A stretch of DNA of 64,000 bases, taken from NCBI GenBank assembly GCA_002441095.1, contig DJVG01000034.1, forward strand, positions 61,072 through 125,071, in the 5' to 3' direction. This document shows, one piece after another, positions 10,384 through 15,000 of the stretch. The notes below the pieces were generated by a model. That model was not told the origin of the DNA, did no database searches, and saw only the letters and a program-made list of their open reading frames with translations. Every line of letters starts with the position of its first letter. Within the stretch, counting starts at the first letter, position 1. A program made the translations under genes and the position numbers. The stretch is from Elusimicrobia bacterium UBA6262. GTDB taxonomy: Bacteria; CAYTYR01; UBA6262.

Positions 10384-11103
10384 TTATTGATTAGGCTTAA
10401 TACCATGTTCACTAATAAGTTTTTCCGACAACCATAAATCCAGCTCATCATGTATATCAATAAAAGGTAGTTCTTCGTTATTTATAACAACTTCTACGTT
10501 GTTTCCCAGCCGCCGGCCCTGTTTAATGAACTCTGACCTGGTCGCACAAGCTAATCCAGTATCTTCCCTGTATAATGGTTCTCTTTTCTGCCGGGGCCCA
10601 TACTGCAAATCTGGCGCTAAGCGGACCATTTTCCCATCAACTCGGCGCCAGTAGTTTTTGTGGGTTTTAGTCACTACGAAGACCGAATCCAAGTTTGGGT
10701 CAGAGAGGATCTTTTGCACTGTTTCCTGCAGCATATACCTGGACCGGAATATGTCGGTTAATTGCAGAAATACCACTACATCGGCCTTATACTGCTCATT
10801 TTTCTCCAGCCATTCAACGCCGTGTTTAAGCACTGCTTCCGTAGTTGTGTCATCCTGGGCCAATTCAGCCGGCCTAATAAAAGGGATCTCGGCGCCATAA
10901 TTCCTTGCAATCTGAGCTATTTCCTGGTCATCGGTTGAAACGATGACACGATCGATCAAAGCGCATTGTTTAGCAGCTTCGATAGTGTAGGCGATCAGCG
11001 GCTTGCCGGCTAACAGCTTAATATTTTTTCTGGGTAATCCTTTCGACCCGCCCCGGGCCGGGATTATAGCTACTACTTGAAGCTTATTTTTCTCATTTGT
11101 CAT
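10384..11103 (-). CDS. CMP-sugar (acylneuraminate/Kdo-type) cytidylyltransferase
   Basis: VAIIPARGGSKGLPRKNIKLLAGKPLI is the canonical NeuA/PseF/KdsB-family P-loop. Confidence 0.8.
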   Translation of the reverse strand: MTNEKNKLQVVAIIPARGGSKGLPRKNIKLLAGKPLIAYTIEAAKQCALIDRVIVSTDDQEIAQIARNYGAEIPFIRPAELAQDDTTTEAVLKHGVEWLEKNEQYKADVVVFLQLTDIFRSRYMLQETVQKILSDPNLDSVFVVTKTHKNYWRRVDGKMVRLAPDLQYGPRQKREPLYREDTGLACATRSEFIKQGRRLGNNVEVVINNEELPFIDIHDELDLWLSEKLISEHGIKPNQ

Positions 11104-12448
11104 TGTTTTTCCACCAGTCAGAGATCAATTGTTCAGCTACCTGGAAATCGTTTGCTTTACTGACATTAAGCATATGGATCAGCCCTTCGATCTCCAGCAT
11201 TCCTACTTTGGGCCCTAATCTTTCACCTCTGCGGATAAATTCGCTGTAGGTAGCCGTGCACAAGCCCGAAATCCCGATATGCAAAGGGTTTTTGTATTTA
11301 CTCGGGACAAAACCTTCATCCAGCCGTACCAGCTTGCCTTCTTCTTCGCGCCAGCAGGATTTATATTCCGGAATAGCCGGTAAAACACTGTCAAAGCCTT
11401 CTTCTACCAGCATCCTGATGGTTTGATCGATGATATTTTTTGGCCGGAAAGGATAGGTACTGCTTAAGTATACGACCACATCAGGGATGATCGCCTGCTG
11501 CTCTAAAACCTCCACCGTATATTTCAGTATTTCCTCTATTTCAATATAATCCTGTGAAAATTCCGGCGGCCTTTTCAGGCAGATTATTTTCTTATGTTTC
11601 TTGGCCAGATTGATATATTCATCATTATCGCAGGTTAAAACTATCTGCTTTATATAACGGGAAGCCAAAGCCCGTTCAATGGTATAATCCAATAGCGGCC
11701 GTCCGCCTAAACTAGCGATCTCCCCTTTCAACGGGATAACTGCCACACAATTTAGCTTCTCCGGATCAAGATTTTTATTTAGATGTCCATTTTCAAAAGT
11801 TTCCAGTATCCCCACTATTTTGCGGCATCTTTCCTCATCGGAGCTTTGATGTATCCCATGATAGTGGTAGACACTGGCTTCGGGTTCATAGATTATTTTA
11901 TAACCCTGGGTTAAGACCTGCTTCCCCCAAACCCGGTCTTCAATATTTGTAACTTGCTCATCAAACGGTATTTTTTCCCATACTGACCGCTTGATCAAAC
12001 TATTGGCATTATGAAAAAACGGATCCTTGATCTGCACCTTGCGGTCAAGTCCAAAAGTAATAAGCAGGTCCCGTTTATCAAAATCACTGCTATATGATAA
12101 GGGTTCTTGCCGGCCATATACCCCGGCAACATCAGGAGGAATAATACTATTAACAAGGTTAGATAACCATTTGTTATTAGTAGGAATGCAATGCCCGGAA
12201 AGACAGCAAATATATTCCCCTTTTGACTGCTTAATACCGTAATTGATAGCTTTACCTGGCTTAAAATCGTTTAGCGAAACAATATTTACATTATACAGTT
12301 TAGCCTTATCAATAGTCTTATCTGTGCTCTGATTATCAACCAGGATCACTTCGAAATCCTGGAAATCCTGCTTAAAAACAGCTGCCAGGCAGGAAGAGAT
12401 CCATCTTTCTTCATTTTTGGTCCTGATAATAATAGAAACTTTTGGCAT
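11093..12448 (-). CDS. fusion protein: N-terminal GT2 glycosyltransferase plus C-terminal cytidylyltransferase-like domain with a degenerate P-loop
   Basis: N-terminus VSIIIRTKNEER...FEVILVDNQSTD (GT2). The C-terminal half (VAVIPLKGEIASLGGRPLLDYTIERA...) is paralogous to the downstream cytidylyltransferase but lacks RGGSKG..KN. Confidence 0.7.
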   Translation of the reverse strand: MPKVSIIIRTKNEERWISSCLAAVFKQDFQDFEVILVDNQSTDKTIDKAKLYNVNIVSLNDFKPGKAINYGIKQSKGEYICCLSGHCIPTNNKWLSNLVNSIIPPDVAGVYGRQEPLSYSSDFDKRDLLITFGLDRKVQIKDPFFHNANSLIKRSVWEKIPFDEQVTNIEDRVWGKQVLTQGYKIIYEPEASVYHYHGIHQSSDEERCRKIVGILETFENGHLNKNLDPEKLNCVAVIPLKGEIASLGGRPLLDYTIERALASRYIKQIVLTCDNDEYINLAKKHKKIICLKRPPEFSQDYIEIEEILKYTVEVLEQQAIIPDVVVYLSSTYPFRPKNIIDQTIRMLVEEGFDSVLPAIPEYKSCWREEEGKLVRLDEGFVPSKYKNPLHIGISGLCTATYSEFIRRGERLGPKVGMLEIEGLIHMLNVSKANDFQVAEQLISDWWKNNDK

Positions 12449-12464
12449 AACCTACCTCTATTGG

Positions 12465-13388
12465 CTAACGGTTAGATATGATTTTCGATATTGCTTCCAA
12501 CTGTTTAGCTAGTATGGCAAAATCCTTAAAATTAAGCGCCTGTAAAGGGTCAACCCAGGCTTTTTCAGGGTTCGGGTGAACCTCGATCAATAATCCATTG
12601 GCCCCAGCGGCAATAGCCGCCCGGGAAATAGCCGCGACATAGGCCCGTTTGAAGGTGGCGTGACTGGGATCCACAAAGACTGGGACCGAAGGTGCATATT
12701 CCTTGAGCGCGGGAATCGCCTGGATATCGATAATGGCCCTGGATTCAACATTATGGGTATGAGGCGCCACTATTCCCCGTTCACAAAAGACGAAATTATG
12801 CTTTCCCCTGGCTTCAAAATGTTCCCCTACCCCCAGCAGGGAGCGCAGGCTTTCTCCATAGTGACGCTTGATCATCACTGGCTTATCTGTAGTACACAAA
12901 GCCTCGATCAGGTCCATATTAAACATATGCCGGTACCCGATCTGGAACATATCAACATATTTGGACATTATGGGCAATGAGTCAGCATAGACGATCTCTG
13001 AAATGATTGGTAACCCGTATTTTTCCCCGGCTTCTTTGAAATAGGCAAAACGTTTCTCCGCCCTTTGGAACAGTTCATTCTTGGGCATTATTTCCTTGCG
13101 TTCCTTGCTTTTTTCATTAGTATCCGAGTCAGCCACGCCAATAGGATCGCCATAAGGGAAAGTCAGCGGCTTAAAAATACCGCCGCGCAGCATGGTAGCC
13201 CCGGCCTCTTTTACCGCCTTAGCCACCTCGAATATTTGCGTCTTGCTTTCTACCGTGCAGGGGCCGGCCATCAGGACGATCTTATCTCCGCCCAGGTCAA
13301 TATCCTTAACTTTAATTTCCCGCCGGTAGTCTTTTCTGCTTACCAACGGGATATTATTCTGTAAATCATTTTGTGAAATATCTTTCAT
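12465..13388 (-). CDS. DAHP synthase / Kdo8P synthase family (type I-beta) PEP-aldolase, DAHPS-like
   Basis: [16 protein letters not shown] and EVHPNPEKA motifs of the I-beta family. The loop reads KPLTFPY rather than the DAHPS KPRTSPY. Confidence 0.7.
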
Positions 13389-13397
13389 CTCTGCTCC

Positions 13398-14186
13398 TTA
13401 TGGTTTTTTTATCCAATTATGCTGCGGATCTTCGGCCCCGACCAGTTTTTTACCCTCTCCCGAAAGGAAAAAAAGATAATGCAGGTTATATCCCGGCCCG
13501 GCGGCGATCTGGTGATAACCCCAAGGCATAAAAGTGATTGAATTCTGCTCCAGGAATATCAATTCATTAATACCTCTTTCCGGTGAATAAAAACGTTCCA
13601 AACCCCAGCCCTGCGGCTTATCAGTACTAAAATAATATAATTCCTCGTGTAAGGATTCCTGCGGCAAGTTACTAACCTCATGCCTGTGAGGCGGAGTCCC
13701 GGACCAGTTCCCGGGAAAATTAATGGTCTCACCCACTAACATATTGACTGCCGGCGATTCAGGACCGATGATCATTCTCACTTCGCGCGACCAGTTATCC
13801 TTGCCCACGATAATCGGTTTTATTTTATCCGGGGTAAAGATGGCAGTTTCAGTCTGGACTTGGCAGTGTGACCGGCAAACCGCGACTAAAGCCTGTTTTC
13901 CCTTCAATATGAATGCAGTTTGCGCAGGGATGTATATCCCGGTCGGCAACCCGCTGAACACATCCTTACGCTGGCCAAGATCCGCATATTCCTTGCCCTT
14001 TATGCTTAGGGAACATGATCCTGCCAGGACCACCAGCCCGGTCTCAGCATCTTCCTCCTTAAACTCCAGTTCTTGCGCAGTAGTTATGTTAACTATTGCG
14101 AATCCTTTGATATATTTAAATAGCCCCCCCGGATCAACCTCATTAAGGCCCGGTTTTAGGGTCAACCGCTGATCAAATTTTCCCAT
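13398..14186 (-). CDS. IolB/KduI-family cupin ketol-isomerase
   Basis: 262 aa; NWSGTPPHRHE...ESLHEELYYF resembles 5-deoxy-glucuronate isomerase (IolB). Confidence 0.55.
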   Translation of the reverse strand: MGKFDQRLTLKPGLNEVDPGGLFKYIKGFAIVNITTAQELEFKEEDAETGLVVLAGSCSLSIKGKEYADLGQRKDVFSGLPTGIYIPAQTAFILKGKQALVAVCRSHCQVQTETAIFTPDKIKPIIVGKDNWSREVRMIIGPESPAVNMLVGETINFPGNWSGTPPHRHEVSNLPQESLHEELYYFSTDKPQGWGLERFYSPERGINELIFLEQNSITFMPWGYHQIAAGPGYNLHYLFFLSGEGKKLVGAEDPQHNWIKKP

Positions 14187-14187
14187 A

Positions 14188-15000
14188 TTAGACTCCTCTC
14201 ATATAGTGAATATATTTTTTCATTGCTGTTGGCGCATCCGGTAATGGCTGGTATTCCCCGGACAAATAACCTTTGTATCCAATTTTCTTTAACTCTTTTA
14301 TAATCTGTTTAAAATTTATATGCCCGGCTCCGGGATATAACCTGTTACTGTCAGCAATATGGATATGGCCGATCCGAGAGCTAAATAAGGTCAACGTTTT
14401 GAGCAGGTCTTTTTCTTCAATATTCATATGAAAAGTATCAAGCAATAAATAACAATTATCCAATCTGTGCCGGTCAATGAATCCTGCAGTTTCAGCTGCC
14501 GTATTCATGATATTTGTTTCGTACCGGTTTAAGGGTTCTATCAATAACTTAACCTTTTTACTTTTGGCGTAGGCAGAAAGGTCCTGTAGCTGACCAGCTA
14601 AAGAGCTTATTTGTCTTTTTCTCTCTGCTGCTGTACCCGCTAATGTACCCCGGACCAATCCGATAATGACATAACACTTGAATTGCGCTGCCAGGTCAAC
14701 CTGTTTTTTCATTCTTAACAGCGCTTTTTTTCTGATCCCCGGATCCAGGTCTGAAAACGATAAGCCTTCATCAACATAAGCCTGGCCTGTACCAATAGCA
14801 ACCAATTTTAAATCATTTTTCTGCAGGTTCAATTGCAGATCAGCGATATCTACAGTTAACGGGTCCTTAATGGCTAACTCTACCCCATCAAAGCCCAGTT
14901 TTTTCATAAAAGGCAATGACTTCTTCCAGTTAGCCGAGCTGATGGCAGAGAACTTTGTCGGCGACAGGGAAATGGCAAAGGACAGCTTCATATCATACAA
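14188..15000 (-). CDS. sugar phosphate isomerase/epimerase (xylose-isomerase-like TIM barrel)
   Basis: 270 aa AP-endonuclease-2 / IolE-like TIM barrel; adjacent to the IolB-like gene. Confidence 0.6.

Follow-up and report, generated by a model that had tools for sequence, protein, structure and literature searches.

The window analysed here is a stretch of 64,000 nucleotides from Elusimicrobia bacterium UBA6262 (assembly GCA_002441095.1, contig DJVG01000034.1, positions 61,072 to 125,071), and our subject is a cassette of five minus-strand genes within it that probably makes a cytidine monophosphate (CMP)-activated sugar acid. The first gene (10384-11103) encodes a CTP_transf_3 cytidylyltransferase (PF02348, 97.2 bits), which we propose as a CMP-ulosonate synthetase. 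The second (11093-12448) is a fusion of a GT2-like domain (Glycos_transf_2, PF00535, 90.6 bits) and a C-terminal NeuA-like domain (CTP_transf_3, 45 bits), and is a candidate CMP-sugar-dependent transferase or hand-over module. The third (12465-13388) encodes a phosphoenolpyruvate (PEP)-dependent metallo-aldolase derived from type I-beta 3-deoxy-D-arabino-heptulosonate 7-phosphate synthase (DAHPS; DAHP_synth_1, PF00793, 154.9 bits), the proposed ulosonic-acid synthase. The fourth (13398-14186) encodes an IolB/KduI-family cupin (KduI/IolB, PF04962, 207 bits), a putative aldose-ketose isomerase acting on a sugar acid, and the fifth (14188-15000) an IolO-like TIM barrel of the xylose-isomerase fold (AP_endonuc_2, 141.5 bits), a putative ketose or keto-uronate 3-epimerase. 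The spacing between neighbours ranges from an 11-bp overlap to a 16-bp gap. The original prediction for this DNA, which had described five tightly packed genes on one strand, agrees in coordinates and domains with the open reading frames and the Pfam and NCBIfam matches. The true start of the TIM-barrel gene is probably the ATG at 14991 and not the TTG at 15000, judging from its homologues, which begin with MKLS.

The aldolase is DAHPS-like rather than KdsA-like, as had been claimed: it scores 265.7 bits on the NCBIfam model for type I-beta DAHPS (NF006421) and 93.9 bits on that for 3-deoxy-D-manno-octulosonate 8-phosphate synthase (KDO8PS; NF003543, cut-off 242). It lies below the cut-offs of both curated DAHPS models (335 for NF006421; 267.75 for TIGR01361, on which it scores 234.1), while its match to the NeuB model PF03102 (16.8 bits) is below the 22.1 cut-off and Pfam finds no SAF domain. 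A sequence search of the PDB returned the DAHPS of Pyrococcus furiosus at E=3e-54 and KDO8PS at about 1e-14. The AlphaFold2 (AF2) model, with a mean predicted local distance difference test score (pLDDT) of 88.5, gave the same order in Foldseek: the nearest structures are the archaeal 1ZCO and 1VS1 (E about 1e-27; template modelling score 0.76 normalised by the query and 0.87-0.90 by the target; 35-37% identity), followed by KDO8PS. More than 100 homologues of about 308 amino acids and 69-95% identity were found among 5.8 billion proteins, with Deltaproteobacteria, Chloroflexota and Margulisiibacteriota among the named sources, and a search for viral homologues found no viral copies. In an exhaustive HMMER scan of 1.84 billion representatives clustered at 50% identity, the whole clade is one full-length representative (514 bits), and the next sequence scores 266. 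In GTDB contigs, searched with one genome per species, identity to the aldolase is bimodal, with 20 loci at 60-95% and the remainder at 39% or less. All 20 clade loci belong to metagenome-assembled genomes (MAGs), from Staskawiczbacteria and Saccharibacteria of the Candidate Phyla Radiation (CPR), Omnitrophota (five loci), Dehalococcoidaceae, Desulfobacterales, Desulfocapsaceae, Myxococcia, Sulfurovum, Victivallales and Planctomycetales. On a neighbour-joining tree rooted on E. coli KdsA the clade is monophyletic in 100 of 100 bootstraps, on a long stem away from DAHPS with the KPRT motif. These comparisons place the aldolase in a distinct clade derived from type I-beta DAHPS, neither KdsA-like nor NeuB-like, and not grouped with bona fide AroG.

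Alignment of the clade indicates that its catalytic core is kept and its substrate site changed. The metal ligands C44, H243, E269 and D280 and the PEP-binding residues R68, K73, R153, K174 and R204 are invariant among 40 aligned members, and both sets align to those of P. furiosus DAHPS (1ZCO). In the DAHPS structures of Thermotoga maritima and P. furiosus, the Arg and Thr of the KPRT motif hold the phosphate of erythrose 4-phosphate (E4P) or arabinose 5-phosphate (A5P), and the KDO8PS counterpart is KANRS. KPR[TS] is retained in 120 of 148 outgroup representatives; in the clade, KPRT(S) has become KPLTF, which is near-invariant across 120 members, and in the 40-member alignment K73, P74, T76 and F77 are invariant and L75 is present in at least 90%. 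IGARN has likewise become IGYRH, the KRG motif is altered, and KPLTF is followed by a clade-specific loop of about 25 residues (residues ~80-102, pLDDT ~82-84) that opens with a conserved YGDPxGxxD. Two near-outgroups, P0122 (48% identity) and P0129 (43%), also have KPLTF; both adjoin CTP_transf_3 genes, and the P0122 aldolase is flanked by a Gfo/Idh/MocA gene and a shikimate-dehydrogenase-like gene. Separately, the N-terminus MKDISxNDxxNNIPL (residues 1-15; 13344-13388) is almost invariant across phyla. N-terminal tails are seldom so well conserved, which hints that this one contributes to the active site or helps to bind a partner.

The stand-alone cytidylyltransferase has an intact P-loop by the pattern R-x-x-S-K-x-x-x-x-K-N that we used for CTP_transf_3 enzymes; it reads IPARGGSKGLPRKN and aligns with the NeuA P-loop in 9ftb and 6ifd. 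Its best NCBIfam model is PseF (151.5 bits, under the 205.7 cut-off), and the models named for KdsB score far lower (NF003952, 64.8 bits, cut-off 193; TIGR00466, 41.9 bits, cut-off 155.2). In the PDB it finds NeuA 9ftb at E=5.6e-30 and KdsB structures at about 1e-8. We propose that it is a NeuA/PseF-type enzyme, not a KdsB-like one, and a putative CMP-ulosonate synthetase; clustering with non-sugar CTP-transferases, which would have spoken against such a role, was not seen.

The linkage between these two genes was surveyed in 24 loci of the aldolase clade with local BLAST and jackhmmer. A CTP_transf_3 gene lies near the aldolase in 22 of them, often within 110 bp, in at least eight uncultured lineages including CPR bacteria, and of the two loci without a nearby one, L011 stops at a contig end and L014 is the one clear exception. 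All neighbourhoods that we annotated are glycan loci, containing Wzx, Wzy, glycosyltransferases and Maf-like genes. The arrangement is far beyond chance, given that loci of many phyla carry this combination of cassette genes.

The genes that accompany the aldolase and the cytidylyltransferase come in two sets. The TIM barrel and the cupin together form type A, which is found in about half of the loci (the window, L001, L002, L004, L005, L006, L010, L012, L013, L014, L017 and L018). Type B, present in 11 of the 12 remaining loci, has two different genes upstream of the aldolase, which encode a Gfo/Idh/MocA oxidoreductase (best model inositol 2-dehydrogenase, 112 bits) and a shikimate-dehydrogenase-like protein (TIGR00507, 171.7 bits, cut-off 200). 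On the aldolase tree, members of type A and type B intermingle, the aldolases of both are 66-75% identical to that of the window, and the two cytidylyltransferase subfamilies found across the loci do not track module type. For these reasons we read the two sets as interchangeable modules, and the pattern suggests that they serve the same aldolase. The earlier proposal that the cupin and the TIM barrel prepare the precursor may hold for the present locus, where both are found, but not as a fixed property of the cassette, since the pair is one of two interchangeable modules.

The relatives of the accessory enzymes give some indication of their chemistry. The window cupin scores 191.8 bits on the IolB equivalog TIGR04378 (cut-off 205) and the window TIM barrel 296.9 bits on the IolO equivalog NF041099 (cut-off 300), and some other cassette members exceed these scores. 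All nine cassette cupins match IolB (best E 2.6e-66) and all nine TIM proteins match IolO best (best E 6.4e-99). By this similarity the pair probably performs the same chemistry as IolO and IolB, namely 3-epimerisation of a keto-acid and aldose-ketose isomerisation of an acid sugar. The genomic context is biosynthetic and not catabolic: no further iol genes (iolC, iolD, iolE, iolG, iolJ) were found in the window, and across phyla the pair is again seen next to the aldolase in loci for glycans, so that membership of an inositol catabolic operon, raised earlier as a way in which the idea could fail, is not what the genes show. The AroE-like protein of type B keeps S16, T61, K65, N86, T101, D102, Y/F215 and Q244 (E. 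coli AroE numbering), and S14 is kept in the CPR versions and is otherwise Ala followed by Lys or Arg. Retention of this shikimate-binding and catalytic set implies a six-membered-ring substrate with a carboxylate.

Some loci carry additional genes. Several type B loci have a DHDPS/NanA-family lyase-like gene, a hexapeptide acetyltransferase and an enolase-superfamily sugar-acid dehydratase (L008, 9056-10024 and 7069-7665; L015, 14841-16001), which suggests further tailoring or an acid-sugar precursor route. In L001 (Margulisiibacteriota; 722-4714 and 13384-15309) the cassette is flanked by two Maf/MptE-like genes and a separate module of NeuB and a CTP_transf_3-HAD fusion. Maf/MptE-like genes usually belong to flagellin glycosylation; in some lineages the new sugar may be attached to flagellin and occur alongside a conventional nonulosonic acid.

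From these findings we consider it likely that the cassette serves to synthesise a non-canonical 3-deoxy-2-ulosonic acid and to activate it with CMP for use in a surface glycan, and that it is horizontally mobile. The original prediction of a new CMP-ulosonic acid pathway is well supported by the aldolase clade, the linkage in 22 of 24 loci and the glycan context, and its view that the gene set departs from the standard routes is borne out, as no KdsD, KdsC or NeuB belongs to the cassette. In the window, the IolO-like epimerase and the IolB-like isomerase would supply a rare aldose; elsewhere an IolG-like dehydrogenase and an AroE-like reductase would do so. This aldose is probably non-phosphorylated and probably carboxylated, for example a C3-epimerised hexuronate. 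The DAHPS-derived metallo-aldolase would condense it with PEP, no phosphatase step would be needed because the aldose carries no phosphate, and the NeuA/PseF-like enzyme would form the CMP-sugar. The GT-A domain of the fusion, which lacks a DxD motif, possibly transfers the sugar, the dead NeuA-like domain may serve to bind the labile CMP-sugar or to pass it on, and a neighbouring NanM-like enzyme may O-methylate it. What was observed is the gene content, the clade, the motif changes and the linkage across phyla; we infer the catalytic steps, a substrate that carries a carboxylate and no phosphate, and the action of the fusion as a transferase.

Several points weigh against this interpretation. 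Every host of the cassette is an uncultured MAG. In L014 (Myxococcia; aldolase at 6329-7270) the TIM barrel, the cupin and the aldolase are present, and the contig shows no cytidylyltransferase within 10 kb downstream or in the 6.3 kb that it covers upstream. The GT2-like domain may be a transferase by analogy with DxD-less GT-A sialyltransferases. In the aldolase, Arg97 of the insertion loop and also Arg113 are nearly invariant, and by their conservation these residues may rebuild a phosphate (anion) site; in addition, a BLAST search with KdsC alone would miss other phosphatase families. Finally, the window genome has a full trp operon, and no second DAHPS-family gene (nor a KdsA) was found within the 64 kb, which leaves some probability to a residual role as DAHP synthase in this organism. 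This last point also favours an explanation by ordinary metabolism, in which the aldolase would be the DAHP synthase of the organism, the cupin and the TIM barrel would serve inositol or uronate catabolism, and the position in a glycan locus would be coincidental; the closeness of the IolB and IolO scores to their equivalog cut-offs fits it as well. We regard it as extremely improbable, as the clade is separated from KPRT-type DAHPS with full bootstrap support and falls below both DAHPS cut-offs, the linkage to the CMP-transferase extends across phyla including CPR bacteria, the window lacks the other iol genes named above, and the cupin and TIM barrel can be replaced by oxidoreductases around the same aldolase. 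To our knowledge, CPR bacteria have neither aromatic amino-acid synthesis nor lipopolysaccharide.

In another explanation the CMP-linked product would not be a glycan donor but would lie on the way to a natural product of small-molecule or cyclitol type. The accessory enzymes and the aldolase do have relatives in cyclitol pathways (IolB, IolO, IolG, AroE, DAHPS). We think this very unlikely, since no dehydroquinate-synthase or sugar-phosphate-cyclase gene was found in any cassette, the annotated neighbourhoods hold flippases, polymerases, glycosyltransferases and Maf-like genes, and a GT-A domain is fused into the cassette core. A carbocyclic (shikimate-like) product was rejected for want of the same cyclase and dehydroquinate-synthase genes.

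Within the preferred reading of a glycan precursor, the nature of the aldose is less certain than the overall role of the cassette. The original prediction had the cupin and the TIM barrel prepare an aldose phosphate, and this part does not fit well with what was found. BLAST across 411 kb of loci found no KdsC or KdsD homologue in the cassette; the sole KdsC-like match, in L001 and L002, comes from a HAD domain that is joined to a second cytidylyltransferase and adjoins an opposite-strand NeuB gene. Likewise, no kinase or KdsC-like phosphatase belonging to the cassette was found in 26 loci. A phosphorylated, Kdo-like route would have the cupin and the TIM barrel make an aldose phosphate and the aldolase an ulosonate phosphate, on which an unlinked phosphatase would act before CMP activation. 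Aldose phosphates are the substrates throughout the parent families DAHPS and KDO8PS, the two conserved arginines could bind phosphate, AP_endonuc_2 includes sugar-phosphate 3-epimerases (four of the nine TIM members weakly match the L-ribulose-5-phosphate 3-epimerase model), and housekeeping phosphatases can be unlinked. We nevertheless hold this route to be doubtful, in view of the near-invariant Leu in place of the KPRT Arg, the lack of a cassette phosphatase or kinase in those 26 loci, and accessory enzymes whose best matches act on non-phosphorylated sugar acids, inositol or shikimate. The loss of the phosphate-binding Arg, the gene content and the non-phosphorylated substrates of the accessory relatives incline us, by a modest degree, to a non-phosphorylated substrate for the aldolase.

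We suggest tentatively, from the same similarities, that this substrate could be a uronate and the product an ulosaric acid. IolO interconverts D-tagaturonate and 5-keto-L-gluconate, which is a C3 epimerisation of a keto-uronate, and an IolB-like uronate aldose-ketose isomerase would link such keto-uronates to aldo-uronates. C3 dehydrogenation is a common activity of Gfo/Idh/MocA enzymes, and in type B a C3 dehydrogenase together with an AroE-like reductase acting on a pyranuronate would yield the same net C3 epimer. Condensation of a uronate with PEP would then give a 3-deoxy-non-2-ulosaric acid, and a product of nine carbons would suit an activating enzyme that resembles NeuA/PseF and not KdsB. 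A different explanation is that a known sugar is made by a new route, either Kdo from D-xylulose or D-ribulose by way of D-arabinose, or Kdn from a hexose, bypassing KdsD and KdsC or NeuB. A ketose 3-epimerase and an aldose-ketose isomerase could in principle yield D-arabinose from pentuloses, the D-psicose 3-epimerase model is second-best for all nine TIM proteins, and P. furiosus DAHPS, the closest structure, accepts A5P. We judge this explanation unlikely, as the cytidylyltransferase is far nearer to NeuA/PseF than to KdsB, and the retained carboxylate site of the AroE-like protein and the IolO and IolB best matches fit acid sugars better than neutral pentoses or hexoses. Moreover, L001, L002 and L085 have a separate NeuB module beside the cassette, and this coexistence suggests that the two systems are not redundant. 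Returning to the uronate proposal, its fullest form is speculative as well: the cassette aldolase would be a third, DAHPS-derived class of alpha-carboxyketose synthase for glycans beside KdsA and NeuB, converting a free C3-epimerised hexuronate and PEP into 3-deoxy-non-2-ulosaric acid, a nine-carbon, dicarboxylic, sialic-like sugar without an earlier description that would be CMP-activated, moved by a new kind of metal-independent GT-A enzyme fused to a dead synthetase, and spread horizontally as far as the CPR.

The fusion protein consists of an N-terminal GT2-like GT-A domain (about 11804-12448) and a C-terminal NeuA-like domain (about 11096-11750). The second synthetase copy had been described as P-loop-degenerate, and it is so called here as well because the P-loop position carries IPLKGEIASLGGRP; degeneracy at this site extends to all 15 fused copies. 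In the GT-A domain, the DxD position reads (L/I)S(G/A/S)HC(I/V)P in 15 of 15 orthologues, none of which has a DxD, and Asp91 of TarS (5TZE) aligns with Ser84 of the fusion. Full-length orthologues occur in 14 of the 24 loci, in both cassette types; several of the remaining loci are cut short by the end of a contig. The DxD motif binds the metal that holds the diphosphate of a nucleoside-diphosphate sugar, and CMP-sugar transferases of GT-A-like fold (GT42, GT29) are without it and use His as the catalytic base. By analogy with these, the GT-A domain may be a CMP-sugar-dependent transferase, a view that we hold loosely, and the dead NeuA-like domain may pair with the active, normally dimeric synthetase for handing over the labile CMP-sugar.

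A second candidate transferase is the orphan protein with a KWHPHD motif encoded at 6666-7853 (minus strand), a weak candidate for a GT38-like, sialyltransferase-type enzyme, to which the original prediction had tentatively assigned the transfer step. The protein itself has no family match in Pfam or NCBIfam. Among 5.8 billion proteins it has two homologous sequences, one of which is itself, and a 91%-identical copy is present in L005. Its 73%-identical relative P0271 scores 36 bits on the GT38 polysialyltransferase family PF07388 (cut-off 23.3), and KWHPHD is invariant in the three sequences compared. The AF2 model, built from an alignment of two homologues, has a pLDDT of 36.9, too low for use, and a profile search of the PDB gave a chance hit only. 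A protein of about 390 amino acids in the type B locus L003, unrelated to this one, scores 31 bits on PF07388, and neither hhalign nor BLAST found a relationship between the window protein and the "c6" proteins of about 400 amino acids in type B loci. We regard the resemblance to sialyltransferases as weak but real, so that the suggested role stands in part, by way of P0271, and the GT2-like domain of the fusion may be the transferase instead.

The cassette lies in a glycan locus that extends from about 1.0 to 26.8 kb of the window. Directly beside it, on the minus strand, are the gene of a putative NanM-type sugar O-methyltransferase (9393-10358; TIGR04371, 118 bits, cut-off 44), homologues of which adjoin the cassette in L005, L009, L013, L017 and L022, and that of a Wzx-like polysaccharide flippase (7896-9365; NCBIfam HfsF, 46.9 bits), whose counterpart on another contig has Polysacc_synt and MatE matches in Pfam. 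The flippase marks this as a Wzx/Wzy-type glycan locus. The locus also encodes a Wzz-like protein, methyltransferases, UDP-glucose 6-dehydrogenase, a UXS-like short-chain dehydrogenase/reductase (SDR), glucose-1-phosphate cytidylyltransferase, and rml-like, GDP-mannose-dehydratase-like and GDP-fucose-synthase-like proteins. Nucleotidyltransferase, SDR and methyltransferase genes at 1040-2802 and 5912-6661 are 58-71% identical to genes flanking the cassette in a MAG of Staskawiczbacteria (CPR; L009, 18046-20500), and this likeness suggests that the horizontally moved block may be larger than the cassette. Between them lie genes for a radical SAM/SPASM-type protein (2802-4016) and a 631-aa GH42/GH14-like protein (4009-5904), unusual content for a polysaccharide locus, which are kept in the locus of a 95%-related MAG (L005). 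Three open reading frames without a Pfam or NCBIfam match, one of 762 aa at the edge of the locus (26828-29116) and two of about 300 aa inside it (20150-21115 and 21097-21996), may encode undescribed glycan-assembly proteins. Housekeeping genes follow past the glycan locus, including the complete trp operon (33.7-42.3 kb), his genes, an EPSP-synthase-family gene, prfA, prmC, rho and polA. Among labelled Rho sequences, the nearest to that of the window is 95% identical and belongs to a MAG annotated as Elusimicrobia. The trp operon (33739-42318; trpE-G-D-C ... F-B-A) contains an extra TrpB2-type gene between trpC and trpF (36626-37999; NF009057, 747 bits) besides the canonical trpB. Near the end of the window, a ThyX-like reading frame of 438 aa (62563-63879) has two Thy1-matching stretches and may be a flavin-dependent thymidylate synthase that was duplicated or fused.

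The novelty of the system is that CMP-ulosonic acid biosynthesis would draw on a new lineage of synthase and on new modules for the precursor, together with a transferase fusion of an unusual kind. We know of no ulosonic-acid route that does not use KdsA or NeuB. A full-text literature search found no description of this gene combination, and no curated NCBIfam model was above its cut-off for the aldolase, the cytidylyltransferase or the fusion. Kdo and the sialic, pseudaminic and legionaminic acids shape surface charge, recognition by phages and hosts, and immune evasion. If the interpretation is correct, bacterial glycobiology would gain a further class of synthase and, probably, a novel acidic sugar, and hundreds of metagenomic genes annotated as "3-deoxy-7-phosphoheptulonate synthase", "5-deoxy-glucuronate isomerase" and the like would be explained; such annotations inflate the aromatic amino-acid and inositol metabolism predicted, for example, for CPR genomes. 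The fusion of a DxD-less GT-A domain and a dead synthetase could be a new architecture for CMP-sugar transferases, and the compact set of four or five genes is open to direct heterologous expression. That all hosts are uncultured would explain why the sugar has not yet been seen chemically. A 2026 preprint (10.64898/2026.04.20.719630) reports new CMP-ulosonic acids by mass spectrometry, so new ulosonic sugars are still being found, and according to the same source ulosonic acids have so far been seen solely as CMP-sugars.

Compared with known systems, the cassette resembles the Kdo pathway in that a class I-beta (beta/alpha)8 aldolase homologous to KdsA would join PEP to an aldose, a CTP_transf_3 enzyme would activate the product, and the destination would be a surface glycan. 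It differs in that the aldolase lacks both KANRS and KPRT, neither a SIS isomerase nor KdsC is present, and the activating enzyme is NeuA/PseF-like and not KdsB-like. With the nonulosonic pathways (NeuB/NeuA; pseudaminic acid, legionaminic acid and Kdn) it would share the condensation of a non-phosphorylated aldose with PEP without a phosphatase, as for Neu5Ac, pseudaminic and legionaminic acids, as well as a NeuA/PseF-type transferase, a place in capsule, O-antigen or flagellin-glycosylation loci, and candidate sialyltransferase-like relatives of GT38 nearby. However, its synthase is not NeuB and has no SAF domain, and its precursor would come from IolO/IolB-like or IolG/AroE-like pairs and not from UDP- or GDP-N-acetylhexosamine by a hydrolysing 2-epimerase. 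The archaeal type I-beta DAHPS (1ZCO, 1VS1) share the fold, the Cys/His/Glu/Asp metal site, the PEP site and the lack of a regulatory domain, whereas the cassette aldolase has KPLTF, IGYRH and the insertion of about 25 residues, and a glycan rather than a shikimate context. IolO (the 5-keto-L-gluconate epimerase of T. maritima) and IolB (5-deoxy-glucuronate isomerase) are similar to the cassette pair at nearly equivalog level, but the pair occurs without other iol genes, in a biosynthetic cassette, and is exchangeable for an oxidoreductase pair. With a uronic acid as the aldose, the product would belong to the same class of 3-deoxy-2-ulosaric acids as 3-deoxy-D-lyxo-heptulosaric acid (Dha). 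We found no link between the cassette and Dha-containing organisms, and the NeuA/PseF-like transferase hints at a sugar of nine carbons rather than the seven of Dha.

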